Source of the DNA: a phage
Direction: 5' to 3' (one strand)
Assembly: GCA_026683435.1 (NCBI GenBank)
Contig: GCA_026683435.1_4866.1
DNA length: 64,000 bases
The translations under genes and the position numbers were made by a program. How positions within the stretch are numbered: the first letter of the stretch is position 1; each line of letters begins with the position of its first letter. The notes below the pieces were generated by a model, which was given only the letters and a program-made list of their open reading frames with translations, made no database searches and was not told the DNA's origin. This document shows, piece after piece, positions 2,163 to 52,989 of the stretch.

Positions 2163-2250
2163 TTCAACTCTCCACGAGATTATATATCACACTATTGACT
2201 ATTAACGTAAAAAAGGAAATCCCCTCTTACCCGAAGGTAAGAGGGAGTTT

Positions 2251-6503: not shown

Positions 6504-6539
6504 TGGTATTTTCAGATGATTAGTTACTGCTGTAAAAAA

Positions 6540-9929: not shown

Positions 9930-10135
9930 TTTAATTCCTCAAAAACTATAGACGCCGGCAGCGTACCAAGCGCTGCTTTAATACACGTACTCAGCGGAGT
10001 ATCATCGAACGCAACACGACCGATAGTACCCACGTTGATGTGTTTTGGATTTACGGGTAAGAACTCCTTCGCCCGTTCGTACTCAGCCCAACAGACATCG
10101 GTGTTTAAAGCTGAAAACCCAGGACGGTGAAACAT
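9926..10135 (-). CDS. hypothetical small protein (~69 aa)
   Basis: ORF track 9926..10171; internal ATG at 10133-10135 has SD GAGGGG about 9 nt upstream, whereas the first ATG has none. Confidence 0.4.
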   Translation of the reverse strand: MFHRPGFSALNTDVCWAEYERAKEFLPVNPKHINVGTIGRVAFDDTPLSTCIKAALGTLPASIVFEELK

Positions 10136-10206
10136 AAATAGCACCCCTCGCGTAAAAAATACCCCACTCATAGTGAGGCATAATCGTAAGGAGTGCTAAA
10201 ACAGGA

Positions 10207-14331: not shown

Positions 14332-14379
14332 GTTTGCCTTCTAATGAGAAAGTATTAGTCGTTCATATCCAAAAGGTCA

Positions 14380-14416
14380 TGCGTAAAAAAGAAGAAATGG
14401 AACCCCGAAGGGTTCC
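14380..14416 (-). terminator. rho-independent terminator
   Basis: Stem GGAACCC / GGGTTCC with loop CGAA; minus strand continues ATTTCTTCTTTTTTAC. Confidence 0.6.
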
Positions 14417-21640: not shown

Positions 21641-21824
21641 GGTACTGCACTCCTCGTTAGGTTAGAAGTCAAGGTCAACTACAAAACAAAAGGATGTCGG
21701 TATCCTACGGATACCTCCGTTTATGTTCGCATCCAATACATAAACCCCCTTACCCCCGTACTCTCCTCGATTGTCAAACGATGAGATCGAAACGTAAAAA
21801 AGTGTAGTATGAGAGGAGGGTGGT

Positions 21825-23189: not shown

Positions 23190-23249
23190 AAAAAAAGATA
23201 TAGGTACCCTACTCCCAACGGGAGTAGGGTTTACCTTTTATTTTTTTCG
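23190..23249. terminator. bidirectional rho-independent terminator
   Basis: A-tract, stem ACCCTACTCCC / GGGAGTAGGGT with loop AAC, then TTACCTTTTATTTTTTT; overlaps the stop of minus gene 23238..24500. Confidence 0.7.
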
Positions 23250-24500: not shown

Positions 24501-24567
24501 TGGCTGTTTCCTCTAAGGATTCGGGTCATAGTATGAACTCGACGCCCTCAGAGAAAAGGAGTGTAAA

Positions 24568-27500
24568 ATGGCTGTCGTCCCTGACCCGCACTATCAAGAA
24601 CCGGGGAATATGCAGACCGGTGAAGCGGTAACGCCGATCGGTACTAAGTACCGGATGCTGTTCCCCGCACACGCCCCCTTTTATACCACATCCCTGGTGG
24701 TCAAGAGTGGCGGCAAGAAATTAACATTAGGTGATGATTACGTCATCACCCATGCGTACGTTACGGGCATGGCCCGCACTGGTCATGTTTGTCACGGCGG
24801 CGTGTGGATTACCAACCCGAAATACCAGAGTGGCTTTACACTCGATTACCATGCAATTGGTATCGGCGAAGCCACTGCAGAAATGATCGCCGCAGAACGA
24901 GAAGCGAATAAAGATCGGTATCCCGTAGACTGCCAATGGGATAACGTCATTGGGGATTTATATTTCCCACCGGTCGATATTAAGTTCGACTGGGAAAACT
25001 GGCGTGGCGAATCCGAGTTGATGGAAGCCATTGTTGCGGTTGGTGCTAAGCTCGGTGAAGCGATCAGCCGCGTTGACCCGATTGCTCGTAACACGTTAGA
25101 CCTTCAATATCGCGCCGGCGTCACGCTTATCACATCCGAGCAGTATGCGACGTACGACGGTACTGGCGGCTACACGTATAACGCGTCACGTCGTCGTTAT
25201 TCGTTATCTTACCAGAATACGACATTCGATGCGTATTCGTTAGCGGTAAAATACCGTTTACCGAGCATTCCACCGGAAACAACGTTGAATCCAGGCGAGT
25301 TGATCGATTGGATGCTCTGTTACGCAAACGGTGGGGCAAGTATCCTGCGTCTTCAGTTGAAGCAACGCGCGATTTATCTTACCTTAACGACAGCGATTGG
25401 TTCCGGTTCGTCTAATTACAGCTATACGTTGACGACTGGCCTGACCGATACCGAGTTGGCGGGTGAGGTTGAGTTTAGCGTGGTCAGACGCGAAGGTAAC
25501 GGCATTTACGACATCACCGTTAAAACAAGCAAGCAAACCGTTAACTACAGCTTTAACGTTGACAACCCACCGAGCGAATTTGCGCCAGGGTATCAGAAAA
25601 CTAATGTCGCAAAATGGTTGAAGTTTAAATCGGGCGTCAACCTAAACTGGTGGGCAGGTGAGAACGATTACGTCCAGATTCGTTCATTACCAGGCGCACC
25701 GGCACCTGACGTTAACAATGACGTGTACCAGCTGCTGGTAAAATATCACCAGATTGTCGATAAACTGTACCGTGATGCACCGGCACACACACACGTGCCG
25801 CGCAAGGATAACCCGCATCGCGATTCGTGGGGCGCAATCCGTGCTTTGGAGAATAACGGTATTGCTTCGGACGCGACACTGGTATACGGAAAAACGCAAC
25901 CGCAGCTGACAGATTACGTTAACAATCTGTTGCCGAAACTGTCAACGCTGGCGAATAAGCTTTTACGCTTACCGACGGCTGCACAGTCTATCAACGGCAC
26001 GTTCGGCATGAAGCCTGGCCTGACTTCAATAACGTCAGCAGTGGGTACCGATGAGTCTGAAGGCGTGGGTGCACAATTCACGGTTGACCCGAGGGTTATC
26101 CGTTTTATTGGACGCGATTCGCAAACCGTTAACGCCGGGAACAATCCGATTACATGGCAAGGTGGGGCTAACCAGCTCATCCTTTATCCGGATTCCCGTG
26201 GATTGGAGTTCAACGGTAAGAAACTGTTGGACCCTACTACGGTCGGGCCGTACCTGCCGGGTAACGAATCAGGTGGTGATGGACTGTTTTACGGAGCATC
26301 CACAGCTACTGTAACCATTAACGGTAACGGTATTCAGTCGGTTCCGTTCATTTGTACTTTTGTTCCACCGGAGTCCGACGACCTTGGCCTGATGGCTGTC
26401 CGTTTGTTGGCTACTGAATTCGGTGATCGTGAGGACTTGGCCGCAACGCCGGCACTCATCAAGAAATTGGATCAGCAGTTTACGGGCAAGTTGGTTGCCG
26501 TTAAATCGTACATCAACGACATGCCACTGACGAGTTCTATTTACATCGATAAAACTAACTTCGGCTTATCGAACGTACAGAACATCCCAGATGTACAATT
26601 GCCGATTTCCCCGCTCCAACAAGCTGAGCTGGACAAGTATGCAGTCGTCGGTCACAAACACACTTCTGCCGCGTTCGGGATTAAGCGTGCAACAACGACG
26701 GAGTTCGGTTTAGTACAGTTCGGCACCGCGGTTGACGATGCCACGCTGGCATTAGACGGCGGTGAGGTCATCCGACAGGCGGACGCCATCACAGAGATAG
26801 TGAAGGTTGCGAAGACAGTCGACTCTGGTGCTTCAATCAACATTATTCGTTACGGTTTACCCGGCACGGATATCATTGAAAACGGCATCACTTACACCGA
26901 CTGGATGGTTACTATTAAAGCGAACGATTATTTCGTTGGTCGCGAGTACAAAGTACCTCTCTCCACATTTAACTTGGCGGAGCTATTCCCAGCGACGCAC
27001 GAAGATGCCGAGTTTGGCGTGTATGTTGACGCGGCGGGCGATGATGGCAAGTACATTATCTACGAAAATCCAAATACGGCAGAAACTGAGACGATGACTA
27101 AAATAGGTTCCATCGTCACCAGTGAAACCGGTGTGGTGTTTGTAGAAATCCGCAACGTGACGCGTTTAGGTGAGTTTCGTGAATTAGGCGAGCATATCGA
27201 GGATGATAACGCCCATATTCGTCGGGGCATGACGCAAGCTGAATTCGGATTTACTTACGGTACCGGCGGGCCTGTGTGGTCCACGGGTGCACCGGGTACA
27301 AAACGTATAGATGCCGATTGGCGTTACGCGCAGGCTAGCAGCTATACGCCTATGTTGAAAGCGGACTACGATCCGGCTGCTGATAAATGGACGTTTAAAA
27401 CAACCGGTTTAACTGTAGCCGATTATCGTTTTGTCCACAACACATTCCCAATGTTCCAGAATAACGGCATTACCGCGACGTGGACACCTTTAACCGCAAC

Positions 27501-28281
27501 AGCGGACAGTGTGCTAGAAACGGTAATTGGGTGTTGCCATCACTCGGCCACGTTCATGCACCGTATTTCTGTACTCGTCGTACGCACCGCAGGGCGTATT
27601 ACCACTCCAGGCGGCGTGAGCACGTATGCGGGAATCGCGGTTAACTACGGACGTGCTGCTCAGGTTGTTATTGGCTTGAACGGTGTTACTGGTTCCGGCC
27701 ATGACTGGACGGCACTTAATCCATCGGTGCGTTTCAGCCACACGCGAACAGCGGACGGTATTTCGTTCGAGGGAACGATTAACATCGATTCCAAAACGAT
27801 TAACTTTGAGCTGACGCTAACCGCGACAACAAAGACGCTGAAATACACCTTGCAGTCGACCGGAGAGTCGTGGACTGAGGATTTGTCTACCCGTCTCCGT
27901 CCTGACTATATCGACTTGACGAAACTGATTACCGATCCGAGTACGCCGATTTATCACGGCGTGGGTGGTTTGTTTAGTTCCGACACCGAAGTGCGTTTGA
28001 CTTACGCTAACCTGAACACGATGCCGACAAAGAATCGTTATTACGCCACGTTCCTTGACTATGCGATTAACTATTCCGGCTTAAACCGCGCAAGATTCTT
28101 TACTGGCGTGGTGGATGCAGGTTCAACGATTAATGAGATGAACAGCGCGATGTGCAACTATTCATACAGTTCGTTCCGACCAGTGGATACAGGTAAAATT
28201 CCACTGGTGGCACACCCATCCAAGATGATGACGTTCAATCCGAAAAACACGTCAGCTCGAACACTTATTATTCGTGATTAA
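24568..28281 (+). CDS. putative tail fibre protein (1237 aa)
   Basis: SD AAGGAG; N-terminal domain (APFYTTSLVVK...LTLGDDYVI) shared with the next three genes; internal VVGHKHTSAAFGIKRATTTEFG motif paralogous to those in the next two proteins. Confidence 0.55.
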   Translation: MAVVPDPHYQEPGNMQTGEAVTPIGTKYRMLFPAHAPFYTTSLVVKSGGKKLTLGDDYVITHAYVTGMARTGHVCHGGVWITNPKYQSGFTLDYHAIGIGEATAEMIAAEREANKDRYPVDCQWDNVIGDLYFPPVDIKFDWENWRGESELMEAIVAVGAKLGEAISRVDPIARNTLDLQYRAGVTLITSEQYATYDGTGGYTYNASRRRYSLSYQNTTFDAYSLAVKYRLPSIPPETTLNPGELIDWMLCYANGGASILRLQLKQRAIYLTLTTAIGSGSSNYSYTLTTGLTDTELAGEVEFSVVRREGNGIYDITVKTSKQTVNYSFNVDNPPSEFAPGYQKTNVAKWLKFKSGVNLNWWAGENDYVQIRSLPGAPAPDVNNDVYQLLVKYHQIVDKLYRDAPAHTHVPRKDNPHRDSWGAIRALENNGIASDATLVYGKTQPQLTDYVNNLLPKLSTLANKLLRLPTAAQSINGTFGMKPGLTSITSAVGTDESEGVGAQFTVDPRVIRFIGRDSQTVNAGNNPITWQGGANQLILYPDSRGLEFNGKKLLDPTTVGPYLPGNESGGDGLFYGASTATVTINGNGIQSVPFICTFVPPESDDLGLMAVRLLATEFGDREDLAATPALIKKLDQQFTGKLVAVKSYINDMPLTSSIYIDKTNFGLSNVQNIPDVQLPISPLQQAELDKYAVVGHKHTSAAFGIKRATTTEFGLVQFGTAVDDATLALDGGEVIRQADAITEIVKVAKTVDSGASINIIRYGLPGTDIIENGITYTDWMVTIKANDYFVGREYKVPLSTFNLAELFPATHEDAEFGVYVDAAGDDGKYIIYENPNTAETETMTKIGSIVTSETGVVFVEIRNVTRLGEFRELGEHIEDDNAHIRRGMTQAEFGFTYGTGGPVWSTGAPGTKRIDADWRYAQASSYTPMLKADYDPAADKWTFKTTGLTVADYRFVHNTFPMFQNNGITATWTPLTATADSVLETVIGCCHHSATFMHRISVLVVRTAGRITTPGGVSTYAGIAVNYGRAAQVVIGLNGVTGSGHDWTALNPSVRFSHTRTADGISFEGTINIDSKTINFELTLTATTKTLKYTLQSTGESWTEDLSTRLRPDYIDLTKLITDPSTPIYHGVGGLFSSDTEVRLTYANLNTMPTKNRYYATFLDYAINYSGLNRARFFTGVVDAGSTINEMNSAMCNYSYSSFRPVDTGKIPLVAHPSKMMTFNPKNTSARTLIIRD

Positions 28282-28293
28282 GGAGATTTTTGA

Positions 28294-31200
28294 ATGAAAA
28301 CGTATCCTTACGATCCTCGGGGTGTAAATCCTGAGTGTCACTTCATCGAGGAACGTATCATCGACTCCGACAATCCTAACGATCGGGTGGTGATGCTAGA
28401 TCATCGCCCGTTTTTCGAAGGATTGGTGGTAAGGCTCGCCGGCTCGTCCATACCGCTTACCCGCGGGACGGACTATGAGCTGGAGTATGCTTTAACACCG
28501 TTGGACGACTCGGTGACGACCCCGGTGTTTTGCGGGGTGCATCTTATTAACCCTAAACTGCGTGGTGCGGTGGTCTTTGAAGGCCAGATGCTCGGGGGTA
28601 CGTTTTACAGTGGTTTGATTGAGATGTTGGATGAGCTAATTAAGGCTCTCAACAATCCAACGGCTGCAGATTGGCTGCTTTTAGGTAATCGACCCTCCCT
28701 GTACCCAGCCACCCCTGCAGCGGTAGCTTGGTCAGACATGCTGAATAAAAAGTATGTTGCCTCTGCAGTGCATGATGTGGAGTTAGATGCCGGGGCGGCC
28801 AACGAGCAGATTCGTGAAAAGCTTACTGAGCTGAAAGATGCGGTTTTGGGCTTAGGAACTGAAATCGCCACATTTAACTACCCCGGACACATTGCGTCGA
28901 CTAACCCCCATGGGACTACCGCGGCGCAGGCCGGTGCGCATCCTGTCAACCTGAAAACGCCAGATACTTTCCTGGCGTATGGAAAGACGTTGCGTCAATT
29001 AACCAGCGAGGTCCGTGCACTGGGCCTGCAACAATCGGATATCGACAAGTACATTTCTAAATGGGTATCGAAAGAATCCAAAGGGGTGTTTAACGCGACG
29101 ATATCCGGTACTCGTGCCCTGTTCCGTTCTCCTGCTGGTGAATCCGAAATTGTGTTCTCTGCTGAGGCATTCACTCTTAAATCTAATGGCTCTGTTGTGT
29201 TGGCGTGTGGGTATGCCGACACTACTGGAACCGTCCGGTTTATGGAGTGGAAAGCAGGCATCAATACATTACGTATTGAGTCGACTGGCAGTGCCTTGGG
29301 GATGGATAAGCTGACGCTTAATGGTACGACGTTACTGACCACAACTGCTCTCATGGGCTATCAACAAGACCCTGGTACCGGCGGTGGTACCGTTGACCCG
29401 GATGACAACAAACTGTACATTAGCGGGGTGAACGGCATCACTTTCACGGGTAAAGGGTCAAAAGCCGATCCCGTCACCGGGAAGGTCACAGCCAAACCCG
29501 CGACGACCTCTGAACCTGGCGTTGTGACGCTGACTGATAAGCCGAGCGATGTAGTCAAAGGGCAAGCAGCCACCCCGTCGGCGCTTTTGCCGTATGAGGG
29601 CGACCTGTCTTCGTACGTCAGGAAGACAACGCTGCTGAATAACCAGCCGATGAACACTGGTAGTCGAACGCTGACGAAAAAGGATTTAGGTTTAGACTTG
29701 GCTGATAACACAGCTGACGTCGATAAACCACTTTCTGATGCGTTGGCAGAAGCAGTTACCGGTCTTAGTGATAAAGGTCACCATCACAACTTCGCCGATT
29801 TACAGATCCCAACGGCTTCTCAAACAGTTCCCGGTATCGCTCGATATTCTACCAACCTAAACGGCTTGTCGGGTAATCGCGGCGTTACCCCGAACGTTCT
29901 GAACGATTTGTCAAAACGTTTAGACGTAGTTGCAGCTGCGCTAGCAAACGCGAAAGAGGATTCCGTGACCGATTTTGCCGCTGTGCGTGGTAAGACTTGG
30001 ACTGTGGGATCTACACGTACCACCCTCGCCGTAACGGATTTGAATTATTTCTATCTGTTAAATGGTGCACGTAAAGAGGGGACGGTATCTGGTTCGATAG
30101 ACCTGCAAACCACCCCGATGTTCCAGTGGTTCTCTCCAGATAACCGTATGGAAAGAACGTGGCAGAACGCGGTAATTAATATCGGTGACGGTATTGATTT
30201 TAGTGGGTTTGAGGTTGCCGTCCCGGAAACGAACTACGGTGCGCAGATTGGGTTAACGGCAACCGGCATGGGTGACTTATCGGTTGTTAACCTTTTAGCA
30301 AAAACGTGGGTTCGTTGCGATACAGGTAAACTACGTATTTGGGTTCGTGGCGGTGGTGCTGTTTCTGTTTATCTGGACGGTGTAATTATCGGTGCGGGTA
30401 TTACAGAAGCGGGGTATCTGGAGGCGACTGTCAAAGAGGGGTGGAAGCAACATTGCCTGGCGTTTCGTGCGGAATGTAACAATAGCGCGAAAGCAGCTGC
30501 TATACGCTTCACCATTTACGATGGTGATTACCCGGTTGCGGTGTCGGACAAAAACACCAAGGTCGCCCGTTTGCAGGAGTTTGTTAAGACCGCGAACGGT
30601 TTACGACATTATCTTTACGTGAACATGATAACCGACGCATTGTATTCACGTGCGGAACCCATTGTGGACACTGAAGGTATTAACCTGGAGCGTGGGTACA
30701 TTGGTTACATTGATGTACCCGAGACGGGATTGGTTGCAGGTACGACTTACGAGTTTGAAACGACGTTTGATTTTGGCATGGCGTCCGAACTTAAACGACA
30801 CTTCGAAACACGTCTGGCGCACGGAGTGAGTAATGCCGACTGGTCGTTGACGGATAACCCAAAAATGTTACCGCTAAACAAAGTCGATCCGTTGCCTAAA
30901 CAGTGGCTTTATGCGTACCCTAATAGTCCAGTTTCTGGTAACCACTATATTCGATTAGACCGAGGGTTATTCGATTATAAATTTGATAGTACCATTTCAA
31001 GCCTAGTGTTTGTTGGAGCGGTTGTCTCCACAGAAAGCGCATCACCGTACTGCTGGTTTACACCAAGCAACCCGAAAGAAAAAGGGATGGCGACGTTTGA
31101 AGGTTCTGTGGTGGTCGATGTTGATTTGTCGGAAGCACAAACAGTTCGCGTTCGCGATATCACATTAAACTTCATGGCCCCGTCTGCAGATGATAAAAGC

Positions 31201-32424
31201 AAGACTAGGGTACTGAGATGGAGTGGCAATCGTCCAGAATTGAATTGTGGCTTCATCACGTCTCCTTATAACCAAGCAACTGGAGGCATCATCTCGACCA
31301 CGCAGGGCAGTGTTACAAATAAGGTGCTTGAAAATCCGAGGGTAATTAAAAACCTGACGAGCCAATCTACCGAGTGTTTAGATTTTCTTTCGGTTCATAC
31401 CGATAGTGAGCCTGCGCCGCTTGGAGATCGTTGGCTTGTACGTTATCGATACATTGTTGATACGCAGGTACTGCGCATCTCAATGGTTTCTAAGTTGATA
31501 GCCAATCCGCTGGTGCAGGTTTACGAAATGGAATACGACATTCCGTTTGATGCGATCGATTACTTTAAAGGTGGGGCGCTAGCCATCCACGTTTCCGGTA
31601 TTGAAACTGGAGACAACGTGACTATTAACCACGGTTTGATGCAGCCGATCATCTCAGATGTGGATATAAATCGTTTCCATTATTTACGTTCACTGTTTGA
31701 GTCGTATATTGAAAGGACACCAGATAGACAGTCTTCCGGCCACGAGGAGATGACAGTAACAACGGTACCTTTTGCGTCATTTGGAGATAACGTTGATCAC
31801 CCGGTTACGGAATACATCACGATGTCTGCTGCAAGTGAAGGTTATCCGGAACTTGCACCGAACGGTAAACTCCCCGCGCCGTTTTATAAAGGGCTGCAGA
31901 AACGTGGTGCTCCGCTACTTGAGTCGGCTCCTGCCGACTATACGGCTAACGGTGGTGAATGGAAGAACGGCTTTATGCGGGCCTATCGCCCAACTCAAAC
32001 TGAGCGTTTTGTGTCGGTAAATGGGACAATGCTCTCTAACTACCCTGGATATATCATCGTGGGCAGTGAGAAAATTCCGGGTAATGTTATACCTTTCGGT
32101 GCGTCGACAACAGCTGTTCAGATATCCAGGACTCTTGCCCGCACGAAACCGATGCAGCCAATTCACATCGTGTTCGTGCCTCCGGAAGGTTCTGTGCCGC
32201 CGTTGCAAGCGAAGTTCACTATTAATGGCGTAGGTAGTAGTGGTAATCCGATGTTCGTGATTACTGAAACGTCACCGATTGAACTTCGCACTGGAGGCGA
32301 GACGATTCTCATTGAGAAGCGTAATCCATTCCACATCCCCACCAGGACATGGGATTGGATTTTACAAACGTTAGATACTGAACGTAGAAACGAAGGCAAC
32401 AACTCGGGTGAGTGGGCCTCTTAG
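28294..32424 (+). CDS. putative tail fibre protein (1376 aa)
   Basis: Shared N-terminal domain (RPFFEGLVVRLAG...LTRGTDYELEY); GHHHNFADLQIPTASQTVPGIARYS motif. Confidence 0.55.
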   Translation: MKTYPYDPRGVNPECHFIEERIIDSDNPNDRVVMLDHRPFFEGLVVRLAGSSIPLTRGTDYELEYALTPLDDSVTTPVFCGVHLINPKLRGAVVFEGQMLGGTFYSGLIEMLDELIKALNNPTAADWLLLGNRPSLYPATPAAVAWSDMLNKKYVASAVHDVELDAGAANEQIREKLTELKDAVLGLGTEIATFNYPGHIASTNPHGTTAAQAGAHPVNLKTPDTFLAYGKTLRQLTSEVRALGLQQSDIDKYISKWVSKESKGVFNATISGTRALFRSPAGESEIVFSAEAFTLKSNGSVVLACGYADTTGTVRFMEWKAGINTLRIESTGSALGMDKLTLNGTTLLTTTALMGYQQDPGTGGGTVDPDDNKLYISGVNGITFTGKGSKADPVTGKVTAKPATTSEPGVVTLTDKPSDVVKGQAATPSALLPYEGDLSSYVRKTTLLNNQPMNTGSRTLTKKDLGLDLADNTADVDKPLSDALAEAVTGLSDKGHHHNFADLQIPTASQTVPGIARYSTNLNGLSGNRGVTPNVLNDLSKRLDVVAAALANAKEDSVTDFAAVRGKTWTVGSTRTTLAVTDLNYFYLLNGARKEGTVSGSIDLQTTPMFQWFSPDNRMERTWQNAVINIGDGIDFSGFEVAVPETNYGAQIGLTATGMGDLSVVNLLAKTWVRCDTGKLRIWVRGGGAVSVYLDGVIIGAGITEAGYLEATVKEGWKQHCLAFRAECNNSAKAAAIRFTIYDGDYPVAVSDKNTKVARLQEFVKTANGLRHYLYVNMITDALYSRAEPIVDTEGINLERGYIGYIDVPETGLVAGTTYEFETTFDFGMASELKRHFETRLAHGVSNADWSLTDNPKMLPLNKVDPLPKQWLYAYPNSPVSGNHYIRLDRGLFDYKFDSTISSLVFVGAVVSTESASPYCWFTPSNPKEKGMATFEGSVVVDVDLSEAQTVRVRDITLNFMAPSADDKSKTRVLRWSGNRPELNCGFITSPYNQATGGIISTTQGSVTNKVLENPRVIKNLTSQSTECLDFLSVHTDSEPAPLGDRWLVRYRYIVDTQVLRISMVSKLIANPLVQVYEMEYDIPFDAIDYFKGGALAIHVSGIETGDNVTINHGLMQPIISDVDINRFHYLRSLFESYIERTPDRQSSGHEEMTVTTVPFASFGDNVDHPVTEYITMSAASEGYPELAPNGKLPAPFYKGLQKRGAPLLESAPADYTANGGEWKNGFMRAYRPTQTERFVSVNGTMLSNYPGYIIVGSEKIPGNVIPFGASTTAVQISRTLARTKPMQPIHIVFVPPEGSVPPLQAKFTINGVGSSGNPMFVITETSPIELRTGGETILIEKRNPFHIPTRTWDWILQTLDTERRNEGNNSGEWAS

Positions 32425-32459: not shown

Positions 32460-32503
32460 ACCGCCCTTCCGTTATTGGGAGGGCGGTCTCCGTTTTATTA
32501 CAG
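32460..32503 (+). terminator. hairpin with T-tract (terminator/attenuator) between fibre genes
   Basis: ACCGCCCT..AGGGCGGT stem followed by CTCCGTTTTATTAC. Confidence 0.4.
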
Positions 32504-32519: not shown

Positions 32520-35500
32520 ATGCCGAGAGAAGATGCGGCGCAGTTTAACGGTACGCTCAGTACCGCTACTTACCCGAACCGTTATTCGGCGGTCATTCCC
32601 GTCGAAGCACCGTTCTATCGCATCGGGTTAACGTTAACCGTTACCGATAAAACAACCGGAACCAAACGCAAGTTAATAGAAGGTCTCGATTATTTCTTAG
32701 GACATTACTTCCAGGAATTAGCCGAGGCTGAGAACGATGCAATATACGGCAGCATAATGCTGCTGAACGCCACAGAGGTAGAATACGAGTTACTGTCGGT
32801 TGGTCGACAGTATCGCATCCCTGCTTCTGAAATCGGCAAGTATCTGGTTAAGACAGATATGAAAGACCCGCGTAACTGCGATTGGTCTGAGCTGATGAAA
32901 TATCCGCCGATTATCTCGCCAATCGACCCGCCAAAAGACCTCGAAGAAGCGATTCTTCACGATGAAATCGTAAAGGCGTTGGAAGATATCCGTCTGGGTA
33001 TTTTAGAGCGCGCCCACGAGCTGGATGAGGCTTTTGCCGAAGTTACCGATTTGATTTATCAGAACGGTAAGCAGGTGTTTGATGACGAAATGTATCAACA
33101 CCACCTGATTAAAAATGCACATGGTTACACCTGCGGTGACATTGGCGCTCTCCCGGTACTCGGCAAAGCCGTAGATGCGACTAAGGCATTCGGACGTACC
33201 CTGGCAGAGCTAGTGACGTTAATGTCTACCAGCGGCATCCAACAGAAACACGTTGACATGCTTCTGGATAATACCCTGGGTGATTTACTGGGCCGTATGC
33301 GTGTTCTGAATAACGACGCGATTACGTTCCAAACAACGTCTGGTCACGTTATCAGCATGAAGGGTGAGAAGTTCATCATCACCTCGACAAAACCGCTGGT
33401 ATTAAAAGCTGACCAGGATAACAACGAACCGGGCATCGCTACGGAGTTCAGTGCTGGTCTGAACACGCTTTGGGTTCACTCGGGTAAAGCAGGTGACAAG
33501 TGGGGCGCTTATGATGCAGGTGTGCTTGCACCTGTGTATAACAGCGTGTATCTCGTTACGCCGGATATGGTTAAGATGTACTTGACCTCGGTGAAGATAC
33601 TTCCAGCAAACGCCTACTTCAAGTCCAGCGACACGTTGAAGATTTACGGCTCTGGTAAAGAAACAAACAAACTTTACATGAATGCGGAGCTGCCTGCAGC
33701 AACCACAACTGTGCAGGGTTTGTTTGCGATTACTAACCTTTCGGCGTCCGCTGCAGCATCCACAGCGATTTCCCAAAAAGCTGTTACTGACTTGAAGAAC
33801 AAACTCGACGGATATGCGGACGACACGTATACAGTCAACGGTAAAGGGTTTGTGTTAGACGAAAACGGTCAAATGCATTTAACCTTAACCGCGTCGGATT
33901 TCGGTATTGAGAAGATGAACAATACCGGGCCGCTGGAGAAACCGGTTACTAACGCGTTGCGCACCGTTCTATCAGGCAAAGCGCTTACAACGCACACCCA
34001 CACCATTGCCGATCTCGATAACGTGCCGTACGCATCCACGTCTGTTACAGGTTTGGCTAAACTGTGGGATGCTATTGACACCACAACAGATAAGATGGTT
34101 ACTGCCCGTCAGGGTTTCTTGCTCGAACAAAAGATCGGTACACTGAACGACAAGATTGCTACGTTATTACCGGCGTGGACTGTCGGCGGATCATCGTACG
34201 GCAACAATAACTTCTTGCCTATACCTGTCCAGGGGAACTACGAAGGGTATACCAAAAACCAAACCTGGCAGAAAGGTTTGGCGCGTTACGAGTCTGGTAA
34301 GGTTTACTCGCTCCGTAACGGTTCTAACGGGAACCCACCTGGTGACTGGGCTATCTATTACGCCTATGCTGATGTGTCGCCAAGCAATACGCTGGAAAAT
34401 ATGCAGCAGACGTCCGTACGTTATCGACCCGCTGGAATGTCGGCGTATCCTGGGGTGAATCTGGTTGCTATTGTGATTACCGGTACCGATGCAATGATCT
34501 GCTTAGGCAGTGACGGTGCGTACTACTTGGTCATCTTCGATGGGACGATTGACCATGCAAAACATCATCGTGTTGTTAAAGTGGTGTTGGGTGATTACAA
34601 GAACGGTAATGGTGCGGGCACAGTAACGACAGCACCGTGGGCTCCAAACGCTTCTACAGACGATTTGATTGTTTGTAATGAACGTGTCTACCTGTTGCGT
34701 ACGGTGCTTACCTCCGGTAACTATTTCGTGAGTATGCGTAGCATCGCACTCAACGAACTTAATCCGGGTGGTAGCAACACGTTTGTGGCGGATGCGTTAA
34801 CAGGCGGGATATTAACGTCGGGTGAAAACGTTTATCTGCGACAGGGACAGAAACGTGCACCTTCCGATGCGCTCCCAGCACCAGTTACACAGATCTACGC
34901 AGACGCGTTAGCGAAGTGGAACAATGCAACCAACTTTGTACATGGTCCTGAGTGTAATCACGCGATTGGTGTTGATGGGCTGAGCTTTCGTGTTGGTTTA
35001 ACGCCAACGGTTTGGTTTGCTTCTACTACAGGGCAAACTATTAACTTTAAACAATGGGTGTCAAGCTTTGTTGTCGACTGTAGCGCATTAACGGTAACGC
35101 TGGAAGGTGCTGATCGATTCCCTATTGTGGCTGATCTTACCACGGTTCGTTATAACGGTGGTACTGAGATTGGGATTCCAAGCCGGAAGTGGGGCGAAGG
35201 TCAAGCTAATAACCGAACCTTTGCAACATCGCAAGACAAGTATATCGTTTCGCAAGGACATGCAGGCGATCGCGACCTAATGCCGATTGTCACGATTACC
35301 ACGTTAGACGACGGTGTGAGTTGGTACGAGTACCTGTCGTGCGACTACAACTTCACTGCCAGAAGGTTTAGTGCGGTAACGTTAAACCAAGGTCGTGGTT
35401 CTATCTACGAGCTGGGTATGGCGTATCCACTGACTCTGGGAGCGAATTCCAGACTTATCTGGTTGTCACAGCCACGTTCCCGTTTGGCAATTGAGGTTGA

Positions 35501-37703
35501 GTTTGATCCGAACACCACTTACTCAGGTAAAGCGGGGTATGGCCCAACTAACAATCGACGTGTAGTGGATTCTACCACGTACGAGAATCTGTCGCAGATG
35601 TGCCACATTGTTACACCGGCGTCGCCTGGTACAGAGTTAAACGGCTGGTATTGCACAGGACCAGAAACATTCCCTTACCACAACGTTTCTGGCACTTTCA
35701 CGATTCATGCCGATCGGTTGACGCTGTCACAAGCCGAATGGGATAAGATGAAGCAGATGATCATCGACGGTGCACCGGCAGGCGCTGCGAATGGTTATGC
35801 TTCGGAATTTATCCTTGCCGCAAATAACGCAGGAAAGGCATTGTTCTCCGTTTGGTTCATCGGCATTGGTACGGCCACACCGCTCACGTTAGCACAAGTA
35901 GCATGTACGCGTACTGTGAACAACGTTAACGTGTTGGATATCTACTACTTTACACTGAAACCAACAATCAGCAACGGGCAGGTAACATTCCCCGCAGCGA
36001 TATTGGCTTTGTTTGACTTCTATAACAACCTCGACTATGACTTGAACTATGCTACGTTGGGAGAGATAACGGGAGGAAAAACACGCCGGCCGGGACAACC
36101 TACCATGGTGTCGGTAGATGGTACGCAGTTCGGGTTGTATCTTCCACACACGTTAACCTTGCGCCAAATTGGCGACTTGGGTGCGCTTAACTACGCTGTT
36201 GGTCTTACGTTGTCTAATGGTACCTGGACGCGTTCTTCTGCTCCACACGGCGTTGGACGTATGGCACCGTCACACACTCCAGTCAGTCCAGCTTATCTGG
36301 CACATCGCGATCAAGTGATGTTACACAACTCATCTCTCGACTACGTCTATTGTGGTGGTATCGCAACGTCGTCGAGAGATTTTGTCGCGGCTCCTAATTT
36401 TAGTGGCCCGACTGAATCGGTTGTCATTGCTGGTGTGGAAACAGCTGAAGGTTGGCTGGTATATGTGACTGAGGAAGTTGACCTGCGTTTCGGCTCGAGC
36501 ACTTATAAGCTGCCTACGTGGTATATTGACCTCAGCGCAGCATTTCCAACAAACCATCAGAACCGGACATTCTACCTGCACGCCAAGGTAGAAAATGGTA
36601 CACCGAAGTACGTAATGGACGTGATTCAACATCCAGACACTGAAACGGAACTCTATATCGGGTATGTTAAAACGGGCTCGTCGCGAGTCGTCGAGACTAA
36701 CGTCGAACATGCTAAGCGATTAGGGGCGGTGAAACAACTGTTGGAACATGCGGCGGTTGAGAATAAGCATGATGTGGAAGTGGGAAGGGACGCAGCAACG
36801 GGCAGACTGGCACCATTGCGTAAAGAAGCGATGGGTCCTTTGTCGATCGATGCTACGAAAGGCTATCTGGATAGTCAGTTGCTTTATACCGTATCTGACG
36901 CACAGCGTCGCGGTAAACCGATGGTCTCCAAACGTTTCGAAGGCTTGAAAACTTTGCCGGCGTTTACTCAGGCAAACAAGTCGGGGGCGTTTTGGAAACA
37001 TCCTACAACAATTGCGACGGTAACGGCCGATGAGAACGGTGAAGCGGCATCGTTGGGAATGGAGTGGGTAGGTATCCCTACGCCTGCTTTCTCTCCGACC
37101 TCAGGAACGATGATAGTGGTGATACAAAGTAAATTCGTCGTCCCAGGTACACCGGGAGTAGAAACGACCTTTAATGTTCACGTTGCCCCATGGGAGGCGG
37201 TGGACGGCTTTTTCTACAACATCGAGGCGGAAGGTACGGATGTTAACATTGACGAAAATCCAGAAGTGTTATTGCCGTCACCACATACCGTGCACCACAA
37301 ACAGCACTCTCTGCCAGCAGGCGTGCCGTGCACCTTTACATTTGTCGCGGCGGTAAGTTCTTCAGCGCTCGAAACAGCTAACCAGCATATTTGCTCTTGG
37401 CTTTTCACGGACGCTGGGGGTCTACCAATCACCACCGATCTTTCGGATAGTAAGATTCAAATCTTACCAGCGGCGGGAGAGACCAACGGCACACCAGTTG
37501 TTCTGAACAGTCGTAGCTACACGTTTACGAATGTGACAGGTGCAATCCCGGTTGTTACCACGGGCGCTCAGGGTTTATTCCCACCACCGATCGTGGCGTG
37601 GGATGGCGATGATCTTACGTTAACGATTGCGCACGATTGGGTGAACGAGAGAGGATGGCAACAGCCTGATATTATCCAGGTCAATCTTATGTTCCGTACC
37701 TAA
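32520..37703 (+). CDS. putative tail fibre protein (~1727 aa)
   Basis: ORF track 32475..37703 starts at TTG inside the upstream hairpin; ATG at 32520 has SD AGGAG. Shared N-terminal domain (APFYRIGLTLTV...IEGLDYFLGHYF); THTHTIADLDNVPYASTSVTGLAKL motif. Confidence 0.55.
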   Translation: MPREDAAQFNGTLSTATYPNRYSAVIPVEAPFYRIGLTLTVTDKTTGTKRKLIEGLDYFLGHYFQELAEAENDAIYGSIMLLNATEVEYELLSVGRQYRIPASEIGKYLVKTDMKDPRNCDWSELMKYPPIISPIDPPKDLEEAILHDEIVKALEDIRLGILERAHELDEAFAEVTDLIYQNGKQVFDDEMYQHHLIKNAHGYTCGDIGALPVLGKAVDATKAFGRTLAELVTLMSTSGIQQKHVDMLLDNTLGDLLGRMRVLNNDAITFQTTSGHVISMKGEKFIITSTKPLVLKADQDNNEPGIATEFSAGLNTLWVHSGKAGDKWGAYDAGVLAPVYNSVYLVTPDMVKMYLTSVKILPANAYFKSSDTLKIYGSGKETNKLYMNAELPAATTTVQGLFAITNLSASAAASTAISQKAVTDLKNKLDGYADDTYTVNGKGFVLDENGQMHLTLTASDFGIEKMNNTGPLEKPVTNALRTVLSGKALTTHTHTIADLDNVPYASTSVTGLAKLWDAIDTTTDKMVTARQGFLLEQKIGTLNDKIATLLPAWTVGGSSYGNNNFLPIPVQGNYEGYTKNQTWQKGLARYESGKVYSLRNGSNGNPPGDWAIYYAYADVSPSNTLENMQQTSVRYRPAGMSAYPGVNLVAIVITGTDAMICLGSDGAYYLVIFDGTIDHAKHHRVVKVVLGDYKNGNGAGTVTTAPWAPNASTDDLIVCNERVYLLRTVLTSGNYFVSMRSIALNELNPGGSNTFVADALTGGILTSGENVYLRQGQKRAPSDALPAPVTQIYADALAKWNNATNFVHGPECNHAIGVDGLSFRVGLTPTVWFASTTGQTINFKQWVSSFVVDCSALTVTLEGADRFPIVADLTTVRYNGGTEIGIPSRKWGEGQANNRTFATSQDKYIVSQGHAGDRDLMPIVTITTLDDGVSWYEYLSCDYNFTARRFSAVTLNQGRGSIYELGMAYPLTLGANSRLIWLSQPRSRLAIEVEFDPNTTYSGKAGYGPTNNRRVVDSTTYENLSQMCHIVTPASPGTELNGWYCTGPETFPYHNVSGTFTIHADRLTLSQAEWDKMKQMIIDGAPAGAANGYASEFILAANNAGKALFSVWFIGIGTATPLTLAQVACTRTVNNVNVLDIYYFTLKPTISNGQVTFPAAILALFDFYNNLDYDLNYATLGEITGGKTRRPGQPTMVSVDGTQFGLYLPHTLTLRQIGDLGALNYAVGLTLSNGTWTRSSAPHGVGRMAPSHTPVSPAYLAHRDQVMLHNSSLDYVYCGGIATSSRDFVAAPNFSGPTESVVIAGVETAEGWLVYVTEEVDLRFGSSTYKLPTWYIDLSAAFPTNHQNRTFYLHAKVENGTPKYVMDVIQHPDTETELYIGYVKTGSSRVVETNVEHAKRLGAVKQLLEHAAVENKHDVEVGRDAATGRLAPLRKEAMGPLSIDATKGYLDSQLLYTVSDAQRRGKPMVSKRFEGLKTLPAFTQANKSGAFWKHPTTIATVTADENGEAASLGMEWVGIPTPAFSPTSGTMIVVIQSKFVVPGTPGVETTFNVHVAPWEAVDGFFYNIEAEGTDVNIDENPEVLLPSPHTVHHKQHSLPAGVPCTFTFVAAVSSSALETANQHICSWLFTDAGGLPITTDLSDSKIQILPAAGETNGTPVVLNSRSYTFTNVTGAIPVVTTGAQGLFPPPIVAWDGDDLTLTIAHDWVNERGWQQPDIIQVNLMFRT

Positions 37704-37750
37704 CAGATAGCGCTATGGGGCAAGGAAGCCCCAATCAAAGGAGTTTGGCA

Positions 37751-38953
37751 ATGGCCGAAATCATTCATCAGTACCCGCTCGACCTTACCGGGACATTAAC
37801 GTCGAACGCCGTTACACGGCGTATTACGTTAGGTTCTGGTAAAGTTAACCGGGCTTTTGCTTTTCCTGACGGAGCTTTCTACGCGGATACCTTCCGCTTG
37901 GCAGCTGCGAATAAACCAGGTGTCTACCCGTACAAACGCGGTACAGACTACGAACTGATTTTTGCACATACTGCATATCAGAAAATGACCAAGAACCGTG
38001 AAGTGGTCATGGGTGTGGTGGTAACTAACTCGGCCATTCCTACTGATATCGAAGTCTCTGCGCAAGTCGTTGGTGGTTTTCAGTCTGCGAACGTCGAAGG
38101 CATCCGACAAGCGATTGCGTCGTTGAAAATTGAAGACCGTGTGGTGGACTTCAAGGATCTTCGAAACGTACCCGATACGTTCCCGTCCGCCCCGACGTAT
38201 AAAGACCTTGGCGATATCTACGGTTTTGAGTATATCATTACCGTACTCGCGGGGATTAAAGATGCGATTAACTCCGGCTCTGCAGTACAGCTGGAAGAAA
38301 TTAAAGGTATTCTGGATGGTCTGAAAAACGACTTCCTCGACGCCTTAAATACCCACATCAACGCCGAAGGTAACGTACACAATCTCGACATTCATCAGGT
38401 TAATGGCCTGACGGAGACGGAGATTCGTGCCCTGATTCAAAGTGTACAGACTGCCATTGACGCCACTATCAAAGATATCGGCGACTTAAGAGCAGCAGAC
38501 ACAGCGTTGGGGCAACGCATCGATGCAATTGTGGCTTCGTTAGCCGCGTGGAACGACCAGCTTAACGTGGTTGCTCAAAATTACCAGAAAATGTCGTTAG
38601 CATTAGCTAACCTTAATTCTCTGGTGTTGCAATTACAGAAGATGGTTAACGATCTTCAGTCTGCACTGAATAAAACAAATCAGCGCGTCACGGATCTTGA
38701 GAATCAGGGCAAAGACTTCCAACAGCAAATTGATAACCTGCAAGGACAAATCAACAGTCTTAAAACTCAGGTTGTAAATAACACCAACGCAATTTCGCAG
38801 GCAAACCAGAATCTGGCGAACCATGCGGCTGCGGATAACCCACACCCGAATTACCTCCATAAACAGTATGGCGGTGTTGTGCAGGCTGCTGTTCACGTCA
38901 ACAACAGCCTCACCTCGCGCGACGATGTTCAAGCTGAAGCGGGTACTAAGTAA
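37751..38953 (+). CDS. fibre-associated protein with C-terminal coiled coil (~400 aa)
   Basis: ORF track 37715..38953; ATG at 37751 with SD AAGGAG; shared N-terminal domain (GAFYADTFRLA...KRGTDYELIF); long Q/N/L-rich heptad region; ends ...NPHPNYLHKQYGG. Confidence 0.5.
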   Translation: MAEIIHQYPLDLTGTLTSNAVTRRITLGSGKVNRAFAFPDGAFYADTFRLAAANKPGVYPYKRGTDYELIFAHTAYQKMTKNREVVMGVVVTNSAIPTDIEVSAQVVGGFQSANVEGIRQAIASLKIEDRVVDFKDLRNVPDTFPSAPTYKDLGDIYGFEYIITVLAGIKDAINSGSAVQLEEIKGILDGLKNDFLDALNTHINAEGNVHNLDIHQVNGLTETEIRALIQSVQTAIDATIKDIGDLRAADTALGQRIDAIVASLAAWNDQLNVVAQNYQKMSLALANLNSLVLQLQKMVNDLQSALNKTNQRVTDLENQGKDFQQQIDNLQGQINSLKTQVVNNTNAISQANQNLANHAAADNPHPNYLHKQYGGVVQAAVHVNNSLTSRDDVQAEAGTK

Positions 38954-38960
38954 CTTGTTT

Positions 38961-39007
38961 ACGAGCCGGACTATGTTTATGGACATAGTCCGCTCGTTCT
39001 ACTTTTT
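38961..39007 (+). terminator. rho-independent terminator / regulatory hairpin directly upstream of Cys-rich gene A
   Basis: ACGAGCCGGACTATG / CATAGTCCGCTCGT stem (one bulge) followed by TCTACTTTTT, then SD AAGGAAG and ATG 39019. Confidence 0.6.
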
Positions 39008-39018
39008 AAGGAAGCGTA

Positions 39019-51602: not shown

Positions 51603-51743
51603 TTAGCTAAGAACCAATTCGATAACGTGGACTACCGACGCGCTACTGTTCGAAGAGATGTACGATGGTGAGTCTGGATAAGTGGCGCGATAATACCACG
51701 TGTTGGCGTTGCCAGCGATTTGATAGGCGCGTCTACCGACTGT
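51603..51743 (-). pseudogene. C-terminal relic of an FN3-like/GPGP-family gene (X family)
   Basis: Encodes ...NTWYYRATYPDSPSYISSNSSASVVHVIELVLS, aligning with the C-termini of 52090..52989 (WYSRPPYPESPSNGRY...SIAVLELVLP) and 55423..56346; an in-frame stop lies about 46 codons upstream. Confidence 0.45.
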
Positions 51744-51844
51744 ACACTGCTATCAGATAACCAAACACCGTATAAATCACGTAGAGCTGGGAGAAGATCC
51801 CGCACGGTCTTGGCCGTTTGTGGTACGTAGACGCGCGGAGCTAT

Positions 51845-52078
51845 TTAAAATAGATCTGATAATGTTAAACGGTCGTAATAAACCGTGCACTCCCCAGAGA
51901 AACCTTTACCGGGTTTACCTACCAACGTAATTACCGTGTTACGACCATTCTTAGTGGTCTCGGCAGGAATACCCCTCACCCCAATCGAATCAGCGCTGAT
52001 TCTTCCTGCGAGTTCAGGGTTATCCCTTACAACCTGTTGGCAGAGCAGTTCCAGTTCGGGTGCGCTATACAATCCCAT
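51845..52078 (-). pseudogene. truncated N-module gene (77 codons, N-terminal module only)
   Basis: MGLYSAPELELLCQQVVRDNPELAGRISADSIGVRG...ECTVYYDRLTLSDLF then stop; near-colinear with the first 77 aa of the 472-aa gene 53991..55409; SD retained. Confidence 0.55.
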
Positions 52079-52089
52079 GAAGTCTCCTG

Positions 52090-52989
52090 TTAAGGCAGAA
52101 CGAGTTCAAGTACCGCAATAGAACGTATTGTATCGGTTTCGTATCTACCGTTCGACGGCGACTCTGGGTAAGGTGGACGGCTGTACCACTGATTGTAAAT
52201 GTCAGACATAGTCGCAAAGAGTGCAGATTGCGGGGCAGTAGTCGAATCGGTTGGACCGACCGGAAGGTCGTCAAAGCGCGGCAACTGCCCACTGTAGTTG
52301 TACAGGCGCGCGAAAGTGTTAAACCACTCACCGTCGAGATACAGCTCGGTCTTACCGCTTCTAACGTTAGTCGTCCAGAATCTGTAGTCGAACAAATACG
52401 GCAAACGCACCACGTATTCGTAACCGTTCTTCGCCACCGTGCGGCGTTGGTTACGTGCAGTGGCCCAGCTCGGTACAAATCCATTGCCATCCTGGCCGTA
52501 CATCAGCCCCTGGTTATAAATGAACTGCGGGCTAGCGTATATTATCGCGTTATCGGACATAAACAGAATACGGTTTTTGTAAATGAACTTATGCCAGGCA
52601 CCAACGGCGGAACTGAACATATTCACCACGAGGCTGTTCAGTTCCGTGTTAGTGAATAACTCTGTTGGCGTTACTGTTCCAAAGTATCCAGCGTGCCAGT
52701 CGCCGTATAACAGCTTCTGGGGGCCAGGCCCGGTGTCTAAAAAGAACCCTTGGGCGGTAGGGGTGTTGAAGACACGCTCACCGTCTTTAACCGCAGCTAT
52801 CCAATAACGGTAAGTGGTGTTGTTTTCCACAGCGTTGTCTTCGTACGATGTAGCGTCACCCGGAAGGGTTGCCAGAGGCGTTCCCGGTGCATTAACATCA
52901 ATGGTGGCGTTGCCCGGCGTCTTGCGATAGATTTCGATGCTATCGAGCGCCTGTGGCTTCCGTTGTGCAAAGTTTAATGTAATAGGCAT
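52090..52989 (-). CDS. X-family protein: FN3-like N-terminal segment plus GPGP domain (~300 aa)
   Basis: ORF track 52090..53025; ATG at 52987-52989 gives MPITLNF..., colinear with paralogue 55423..56346; motifs IEIYRK, TTYRYW.AAVKD.ER, DTGPGPQ, GYFGTV, C-terminal ELVLP. Confidence 0.55.
   Translation of the reverse strand: MPITLNFAQRKPQALDSIEIYRKTPGNATIDVNAPGTPLATLPGDATSYEDNAVENNTTYRYWIAAVKDGERVFNTPTAQGFFLDTGPGPQKLLYGDWHAGYFGTVTPTELFTNTELNSLVVNMFSSAVGAWHKFIYKNRILFMSDNAIIYASPQFIYNQGLMYGQDGNGFVPSWATARNQRRTVAKNGYEYVVRLPYLFDYRFWTTNVRSGKTELYLDGEWFNTFARLYNYSGQLPRFDDLPVGPTDSTTAPQSALFATMSDIYNQWYSRPPYPESPSNGRYETDTIRSIAVLELVLP

Follow-up and report, generated by a model that had tools for sequence, protein, structure and literature searches.

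How might a Cys-rich/radical-SAM gene module be kept under its own control when it follows directly on a run of fibre genes? The question is raised by a 64,000-nt stretch of phage DNA (contig GCA_026683435.1_4866.1 of assembly GCA_026683435.1; hereafter the window), in which the 65-nt spacer between the stop codon of the fibre-like gene gp099 and the ATG of the first Cys-rich gene, gene A, holds a strong hairpin. A sequence-only reading had offered two answers: either the module is read through at a reduced level from the fibre operon, with the hairpin acting as an attenuator, or it has a promoter of its own. The data described here suggest that both are probably true together.

The gene junction and its hairpin

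The window comes from a Seoulvirus jumbo phage of the SPN3US type, as judged by 97.7-98.8% identity to Salmonella phage SPN3US and close relatives of it over the 3.3 kb that surround the hairpin. SPN3US-like phages are phiKZ-related jumbo phages with their own multisubunit RNA polymerases (PMC7598289). Gene names follow the SPN3US annotation, which was mapped onto the window and combined with its list of open reading frames (Table 1). Gene A is unannotated in the SPN3US RefSeq record, and RefSeq gp100 (39495-39830) is apparently an out-of-frame call over ORF B. The three Cys-rich ORFs share an N-terminal 'MAI(S/G)(I/L)K..RNR...', followed by ..DCGGTCS(W/F).CS and long Cys/Gly/Ser repeats; they resemble precursors or substrates on which the two radical SAM enzymes encoded downstream might act. 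The module adjoins a fibre gene in 18 of 18 IMG/VR module loci, and no locus was found in which the fibre gene stands apart from it. Elsewhere, about 2.9 kb of SPN3US between the gp113 and gp115 equivalents are missing from the window (~51604-52090); the BLAST alignment is gapped there, and gp114 probes and the gp113 start have no match in the window.

Table 1. Positions of genes, hairpin parts and candidate promoter sites in the window
Feature	Positions	Strand	Remarks
gp096	24568-28281	+	
gp097	28294-32424	+	
gp098	32520-37703	+	
gp099, fibre-like coiled-coil virion structural gene	37751-38953	+	SPN3US annotation
gp099 stop codon TAA	38951-38953	+	ORF list and SPN3US annotation
TTTAC box, candidate upstream promoter element	38958-38962	+	invariant AC; P78M spacing
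Hairpin 5' arm, bulged C at 38967	38961-38977	+	RNA folds, covariation; fills the 15-nt spacer of the putative promoter
Loop TATG	38978-38981	+	
Hairpin 3' arm	38982-38997	+	first 16 nt after +1 if the start is in the loop
T-rich tail TCTACTTTTT	38998-39007	+	7/10 T; runs directly into the SD
SD AAGGAAG of gene A	39008-39014	+	unpaired in hairpin folds; AAGG invariant in ortholog alignment
Gene A, first of three paralogous Cys-rich ORFs	39019-39411	+	ATG at 39019
ORF B, Cys-rich paralog	39422-39826	+	
ORF C, Cys-rich paralog	39842-40048	+	GTG start
gp101, two radical SAM genes, gp104, DUF4376 gene	end 44392	+	downstream of A/B/C
Bidirectional terminator closing the Cys-rich/radical-SAM module	44410-44433		
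TTTAC-N15-TNTG sister site	2188-2211	-	intergenic, towards next gene
TTTAC-N15-TNTG sister site	6513-6536	-	intergenic, towards next gene
TTTAC-N15-TNTG sister site	10133-10156	-	intergenic, towards next gene
TTTAC-N15-TNTG sister site	14364-14387	-	intergenic, towards next gene
TTTAC-N15-TNTG sister site	21775-21798	-	intergenic, towards next gene
TTTAC-N15-TNTG sister site	45124-45147	+	intergenic, towards next gene

The strong hairpin that the sequence-only reading placed between the fibre gene and the first Cys-rich gene is confirmed by the folding-energy calculation suggested at the time. The 58-nt spacer RNA folds at -23.7 kcal/mol, as compared to -8.1 +/- 2.2 for dinucleotide shuffles (z = -7.2; 0 of 200). 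Rather than the plain 14-bp stem then described, the stem (38961-38997) contains 16 pairs, of which 15 are Watson-Crick and one is a U·G beside the loop, and it carries one bulged C; its arms are ACGAGCCGGACTATGTT / GGACATAGTCCGCTCGT. The T-tract had been said to end about 10 nt before the SD; it is the stem that ends there, and the T5 run itself abuts the SD. In a 45-nt sliding minimum-free-energy scan of both strands of the 64 kb (mean -7.8, sd 3.6), the hairpin at -23.7 is the tenth most stable local structure, and those ranking above it are mostly canonical terminators. As DNA, both strands also give stable folds (-15.0 and -14.8 kcal/mol; z = -8.5 and -7.1).

Several explanations of the element were considered and set aside. 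It is not a repeated element, since a covariance model run on the window and on 220 kb of related loci matched the orthologs alone, with no paralog. A search of 38000-40200 against Rfam 15 returned chance hits only (best E = 1.9), all far below gathering scores, including the hit over the hairpin itself (E = 4.8). Occlusion of the SD is absent from the folds, in which neither the SD nor the start codon of gene A is sequestered. An upstream ORF beginning at the loop AUG would have no SD, and its frame and length vary among orthologs. No host sigma-70 promoter was found in the spacer. An antiterminator formed between the loop and CCATAAACA (38857-38865, within the fibre gene) would be complementary at 9 of 9 positions in the window only and at no more than 7 of 9 elsewhere; as it is not kept in orthologs, this complementarity is attributed to chance.

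Covariation of the stem and invariance of two motifs

Orthologous spacers from GenBank phages and IMG/VR contigs gave 16 distinct sequences, that of the window/SPN3US included. The set covers Seoulvirus (window/SPN3US, STsAS and pEa_SNUABM_29), a metagenomic sister clade, Erskinevirus (Stratton/phiEaH2 and Asesino), Machinavirus and allies (Huxley/pEa43, pEa4/ChrisDB and one UViG), Wellingtonvirus with one UViG, and Derbicusvirus and allies (EarlPhillipIV, Phobos and CR5). A hairpin is present at the orthologous site in all 16, spanning five named genera and metagenomic contigs, and each of the 12 sequences folded against shuffles is individually significant (z = -2.7 to -7.2).

The stem sequences are nearly all different between clades yet remain paired (ACGAGCCGGACTATGTT, GAGGACCTGTC and GAGGTGCTGTC; also CACGGGCCTCGTC, GGGCG..ACTC and GGAGGAACTATGC). 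Counting from the loop G, nine or more stem positions show changes on both sides of the pair; position -6 is G-C in six sequences and C-G in six. In one clade alignment, 94.7% of cells are paired versus 39-61% in slid-partner controls, four pairs show compensatory change, and the covariation score of 0.329 (versus 0.168 +/- 0.042) is exceeded by 0 of 500 shuffles. In a second, the corresponding figures are 82.3% versus 42-53%, seven pairs, and a score of 0.408 versus 0.251, again exceeded by 0 of 500 shuffles. Pairs were counted per clade and per sequence, as a single RNAalifold consensus over all clades failed because the register of the stem relative to TATG shifts.

Pairs of the U·G type are frequent (position -7 is U·G in 7 of 12 sequences), and in 10 of 12 the + strand gives the more stable fold of the two strands. 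Together, these properties point to a structure that is selected on the sense strand. The simplest candidate is RNA made by read-through from the fibre gene.

Two short motifs do not vary at all, despite complete turnover of the stem that separates them. The first is the loop TATG, found in 16 of 16 sequences with TAT unpaired throughout. The second is an AC at -20/-19 with respect to the loop G, separated from TATG by 15 nt (16 nt in the Wellington group) and set in an AT-rich context (TTAC/ATTAC/AAAAC/ATAAC). Derbicusvirus and pEa4 are examples in which AC falls several bases beyond the stem, and the spacing is kept there too. Because AC is often outside the stem, hairpin geometry cannot explain its fixed distance.

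A covarying sense-strand stem with a conserved loop is the classic anatomy of a protein-binding RNA hairpin. One possibility would be an element for RNA processing or stability (RNase III/E type), or a UAUG-loop protein-binding element that tunes translation of gene A; the persistence of the stem without a T-tract in the Derbicus group would fit such a role, as would the ribonuclease and 3'-5' exoribonuclease encoded in the window (gp059, gp060). However, the SD and start codon of gene A are accessible in the folds, and the loop is not uniformly presented, given that its size (3-6 nt) and closing pair vary among orthologs. A 16-bp bulged stem is short for RNase III, no Rfam family corresponds to it, and the invariant AC at a fixed distance, often outside the stem, would be left unaccounted for. 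A role of this kind appears very unlikely.

Terminator-like features

Like intrinsic terminators, the hairpin is a stable, G+C-containing stem-loop on the sense strand with a T-rich tail, and it begins 8 nt past the TAA of gp099. Where such terminators have an unbroken U-tract that starts 0-2 nt past the stem, the T-tract here is interrupted, with the T5 run starting 6 nt past the stem (tail RNA UCUACUUUUU, 7/10 U). A simple terminator consensus scan did not call the hairpin because of the bulge and this interruption. The tail, TCTAC-TTTTTA, has the same format of short spacer plus T run as the generic terminators of the window, which consist of a hairpin, 2-5 nt and a T run (for example at 44410-44433 and 23206-23230, with sequences of the type GGGAGGTAGG-TACC-TTTTAT and GGGAGTAGGGT-TTACC-TTTTAT). 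Among the orthologs the tail is T-rich in 9-10 of 12, and in Erskinevirus and Machinavirus TTTTTT follows directly after the stem. In EarlPhillipIV, Phobos and CR5 the T-tract is absent and the hairpin is kept, with covariation (GGGCG/CGCCC versus GGGTG/CACCC), which indicates that canonical intrinsic termination is not the whole reason for the stem.

Hairpin terminators have been mapped experimentally in the relatives phiKZ and 201phi2-1 (PMC10914365, PMC11512511), and the phiKZ terminator motif, CCYCCCC-HWWD-GGGRRGG-YTTAT, has C-rich and G-rich arms (PMC10914365). The generic terminators of the window do fit this motif. In contrast to the phiKZ and 201phi2-1 terminators, the hairpin upstream of gene A has a mixed-sequence, bulged stem, and the C-rich 5' arm, G-rich 3' arm and TTAT tail are not found in it. 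Unlike intrinsic terminators, it has a loop that is sequence-invariant and is not a stable tetraloop. Of the two earlier proposals, attenuation gains from the selected sense-strand hairpin and the T-rich tail, and a promoter from the TTAC-N15-TATG arrangement; the hairpin does not appear to be a canonical Rho-independent terminator, because its U-tract is interrupted and is absent in three relatives.

A further terminator-like hairpin of 12 pairs followed by CTCCGTTTTATTAC lies at 32460-32487, between the co-directional structural genes gp097 and gp098. It has no TNTG at the N15 position and no obvious promoter, and is probably an intra-operon attenuator.

The TTTAC-N15-TATG motif and a composite reading of the spacer

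Initiation by the phiKZ non-virion RNA polymerase (nvRNAP) occurs at the G of 5'-TATG-3' and requires all four bases (Yakunina 2015, PMC4666361). TATG is read on the non-template strand by subunit GP123, which binds it only in single-stranded form (PMC12809450). The phiKZ middle promoters carry an AAanTTACc box, P62M and P78M having TATG as well. TTAC-box (middle) promoters are transcribed poorly by the nvRNAP in vitro (PMC4666361), which counts against the promoter reading proposed here. Extra promoter determinants lie mainly downstream of +1 (PMC4666361, PMC12809450). Here, the window has TTTAC-N15-TATG (38958-38981), and the sequence upstream of phiKZ gene 78 (P78M) is AAAATTAC-N15-TATG, with identical spacing. 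The predicted transcription start is G38981, corresponding to NC_027402.1:144258 on the minus strand. Across orthologs, the start codon lies at +27 to +42 from the loop G, and candidate leaders elsewhere in the window are similar to that of gene A at about 30-40 nt.

The same promoter-like geometry bears on whether the spacer might be a terminator or attenuator only, with gene A and the module expressed by read-through, and with TATG and AC serving termination, for example as a signal for polymerase pausing or recognition, or an unrelated constraint. A covarying sense-strand hairpin with a T-rich tail in most orthologs is what such a function would leave behind; the canonical gp097/gp098 hairpin, with no obvious promoter, suggests that intra-operon attenuators exist in this phage, and TATG is physically tied to terminators in phiKZ (20 of 38 hairpins). 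Terminator loops are usually free to vary, however, and the generic terminators of the window have no TATG in or after them. Termination alone leaves the fixed 15-nt spacing to an AC outside the stem in several genera unaccounted for, as well as the coincidence with the geometry of a mapped promoter, phiKZ P78M. A polymerase pause in the loop would, moreover, precede possible hairpin formation. Termination without initiation is accordingly judged unlikely.

The motif recurs in the phage. TTTAC-N15-TNTG has 8 matches in the window versus 3.0 expected, and 7 of the 8 are intergenic and aimed at gp060, gp065, gp074, gp080, gp092, gene A and gp107. When only intergenic matches are counted, 5-6 have the N15 spacing, as compared to 0-3 for each other spacing from N8 to N23. 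Upstream of the SMC-like gene (gp080) and of gp092, the motif is kept in phiEaH2 and Wellington with a variable spacer. These sites form a candidate (middle-type) promoter class of SPN3US-like phages. In two of the seven members, gp074 and gp107, the annotated start codon falls within the 'TATG', and the class could therefore be coincidental in part. The other TTAC-N15-TNTG members have no hairpin over the start site, so the overlap of promoter and hairpin at gene A may only reflect compaction. The sister sites are often preceded by T6 and sometimes lie directly after a terminator hairpin, with the T-tract merging into the box.

TATG also recurs in the absence of the box. It is the top 4-mer at -45 to -28 from start codons, present in 8 of the 34 genes with at least 45 nt of upstream spacer versus about 1.2 expected from intergenic composition (about 6-fold). 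In the 67-nt spacer between the divergent genes gp095(-) and gp096(+), a palindromic TCATAGTATGA at 24527-24535 gives each strand a TATG, at distances of 27 and 33 nt from the two starts, and this arrangement is kept in phiEaH2 and Wellington (three genera). As these genes are divergent, their spacer must hold two promoters, and the TATG pair likely represents back-to-back late promoters. Overall, TTAC-box sites precede mostly non-structural genes and TATG-only sites precede virion genes (gp095/096, gp099 and gp123). This split fits that between middle and late promoters in phiKZ, and suggests that gene A is driven by a promoter class other than that of the neighbouring fibre genes.

Taken as a whole, the covarying stem, the T-rich tail, the invariant TATG and the AC at a fixed distance have their simplest account in a composite junction. 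The balance tips modestly towards a spacer that acts as a terminator or attenuator for the fibre transcript and contains an embedded phage-polymerase promoter with its start in the loop. In transcripts of the fibre gene, the sense RNA would fold into the 16-bp hairpin with its T-rich tail, whose role would be that of an intrinsic terminator or attenuator of phage type, of a protective 3' end for the fibre mRNA, or both. The same DNA would be a promoter for the phage multisubunit non-virion RNAP, with TTAC at -22 to -19 and TATG at -3 to +1. As the start at G38981 lies within the loop, the resulting RNA would hold the 3' arm only, so that no hairpin would form and no termination would occur. 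This RNA would instead have an unstructured, AU-rich leader of 38 nt ahead of gene A. The module would thereby obtain its own 'TTAC-box' class input, common to non-structural genes and partly insulated from the late fibre operon. Some transcriptional uncoupling of the module from the fibre genes, as the sequence-only reading had claimed, is plausible on these grounds. What is observed directly is the structure with its conservation and covariation, the invariant motifs at their spacing, and the recurrence of the motif class, whereas termination, initiation at G38981 and the acting polymerase are deduced here from sequence; a literature search found no transcriptome or mapped transcript ends for any SPN3US-like phage.

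The polymerase at work here is most likely the multisubunit RNAP encoded by the phage and not that of the host. SPN3US-type phages encode a homolog of phiKZ GP123 with 22% identity (SEGD1 gp078). In its TATG pocket, the stacking residues F151 and H331 are identical, as are Q466, S330 and S402; Y406 is replaced by W and K158 by R; and H185, N186, K190, S334, N398 and Y399 are not conserved. This pocket, kept only in part, lends no more than mild support to the reading of TATG as a promoter element. The homologs are annotated just as 'hypothetical protein' (SEGD1 gp078, 151-1926; Wellington gp94, 133-1899).

Recognition of single-stranded TATG by GP123 also raises the possibility that the inverted repeat acts as DNA at the promoter, either as an extruded hairpin or cruciform that shows TATG or as the operator of a dimeric regulator, with no termination involved. 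It is on the non-template strand that G·T pairs are tolerated, the DNA folds of both strands are stable, the extra promoter determinants of phiKZ lie mainly downstream of +1, and the hairpin persists in the three relatives with no T-tract. The comparison with other promoters argues against this: the remaining members of the class have no inverted repeat, and neither does the reference late promoter phiKZ P119L, where the hairpin is absent (-4.9 kcal/mol). Nor is TATG generally enriched in hairpin loops of the window (7.7% versus 6.2% for all 4-mers). The shifting register of the stem against TATG and the moving bulges suit neither an operator nor a fixed protein-DNA geometry, and extruding 37 nt requires supercoiling, the availability of which in the phage nucleus is uncertain. 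A DNA-level function is quite improbable. The narrower proposal that the repeat helps the multisubunit polymerase find its promoter, by extruding a non-template hairpin with TATG single-stranded, has a slim prospect of being correct. Only if it were would the promoters of the phage N4 virion RNAP be a parallel, as there the motif is shown in a DNA hairpin loop. The N4 enzyme is unlike the phiKZ type in being a single-subunit RNAP, and it reads a 3-nt loop on a 5-7 bp stem of the template strand, with supercoiling and SSB needed; upstream of gene A, a 16-bp stem carries the motif on its non-template strand, and extrusion is hypothetical.

A general rule that TATG sits in hairpin loops was rejected, since the only two intergenic cases are those of gene A and gp074. 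The latter, at 10159-10181 (-), is atgcctcac-TATGA-gtggggtat with one G·U pair; TTTTTTAC comes after it, and the gp074 start is 37 nt downstream. The lack of a hairpin at P119L and of enrichment in loops indicates that the TATG-in-loop arrangement is locus-specific, with gp074 as one further candidate.

The component parts of the composite junction, phiKZ-type promoters and jumbo-phage hairpin terminators, are of known kinds. Its likeness to phiKZ nvRNAP promoters consists in TATG at the putative start, a TTAC box 15 nt upstream as in P78M, and membership of the same group of RNAP-encoding jumbo phages. It differs in its inverted repeat, which is made up of the promoter spacer and the 16 bases that would be transcribed first and is absent from P78M and P119L, in that the TATG pocket of the GP123 homolog is conserved in part, and in that the start is predicted from the motif. 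In bacteria, promoter-coupled terminators have sigma-70 -35/-10 elements that overlap the stem and T-tract, and transcription starts about 10 bp past the point of termination (Fletcher et al., bioRxiv 10.64898/2026.08.19.745784). The junction upstream of gene A is similar in having a predicted terminator of the preceding unit and a predicted promoter of the following unit on overlapping DNA in a short tandem-gene spacer, and unlike the bacterial ones in its phage-RNAP-type promoter and predicted TSS within the loop. In the bacterial case, termination occurs no more than about 35 bp upstream of a same-strand TSS with shared elements; here the elements overlap and the order is opposite, with the predicted TSS (38981) upstream of the predicted termination zone (~38998-39008). 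What appears to be new is a start-site motif inside the loop of a putative terminator, in a phage polymerase system and with conservation across at least five genera.

The locus offers a compact, deeply conserved test case, namely a TTAC-N15-TATG whose spacer and initial transcribed region are self-complementary. It bears on what, beyond four bases, makes phiKZ TATG a promoter, and on which form of the enzyme reads TTAC-box (middle) promoters. If the composite reading is true, a nucleus-forming phage insulates a Cys-rich/radical-SAM module from a late fibre operon within 65 nt, and the motif would give the group of Seoulvirus, Erskinevirus and Machinavirus its first promoter consensus. If it is not, the site is a well-conserved intergenic terminator hairpin.

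In 82 kb of phiKZ (NC_004629, 45001-95000 and 118001-150000), TATG lies 0-3 nt after the stem in 20 of 38 terminator-like hairpins versus about one by chance, and it does so on both strands of bidirectional terminators. This post-stem TATG is the 'YTTATK' tail of the published terminator motif and coincides with the nvRNAP late-promoter consensus, a link that the paper reporting the motif does not draw (PMC10914365). In a broader form of the extrusion proposal, with the same slim prospect, recognition of TATG by the polymerase would be mechanistically linked to hairpin terminators, which would account for more than half of the phiKZ terminator hairpins being followed by TATG. These sites may be coupled promoters or a termination signal that is read by the same pocket.

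Finally, gp099 itself is preceded, 18 nt before its start, by a small hairpin at 37714-37732 (GGGGC-AAGGAA-GCCCC). Across genera this hairpin shows covariation in the stem and keeps an SD-like loop (CAAGGA / CACGGA / CAGGGA). The Seoulvirus TATG at 37714-37717 ends on the first G of this hairpin, and initiation at that point would yield an RNA with a stem-loop at its very 5' end.
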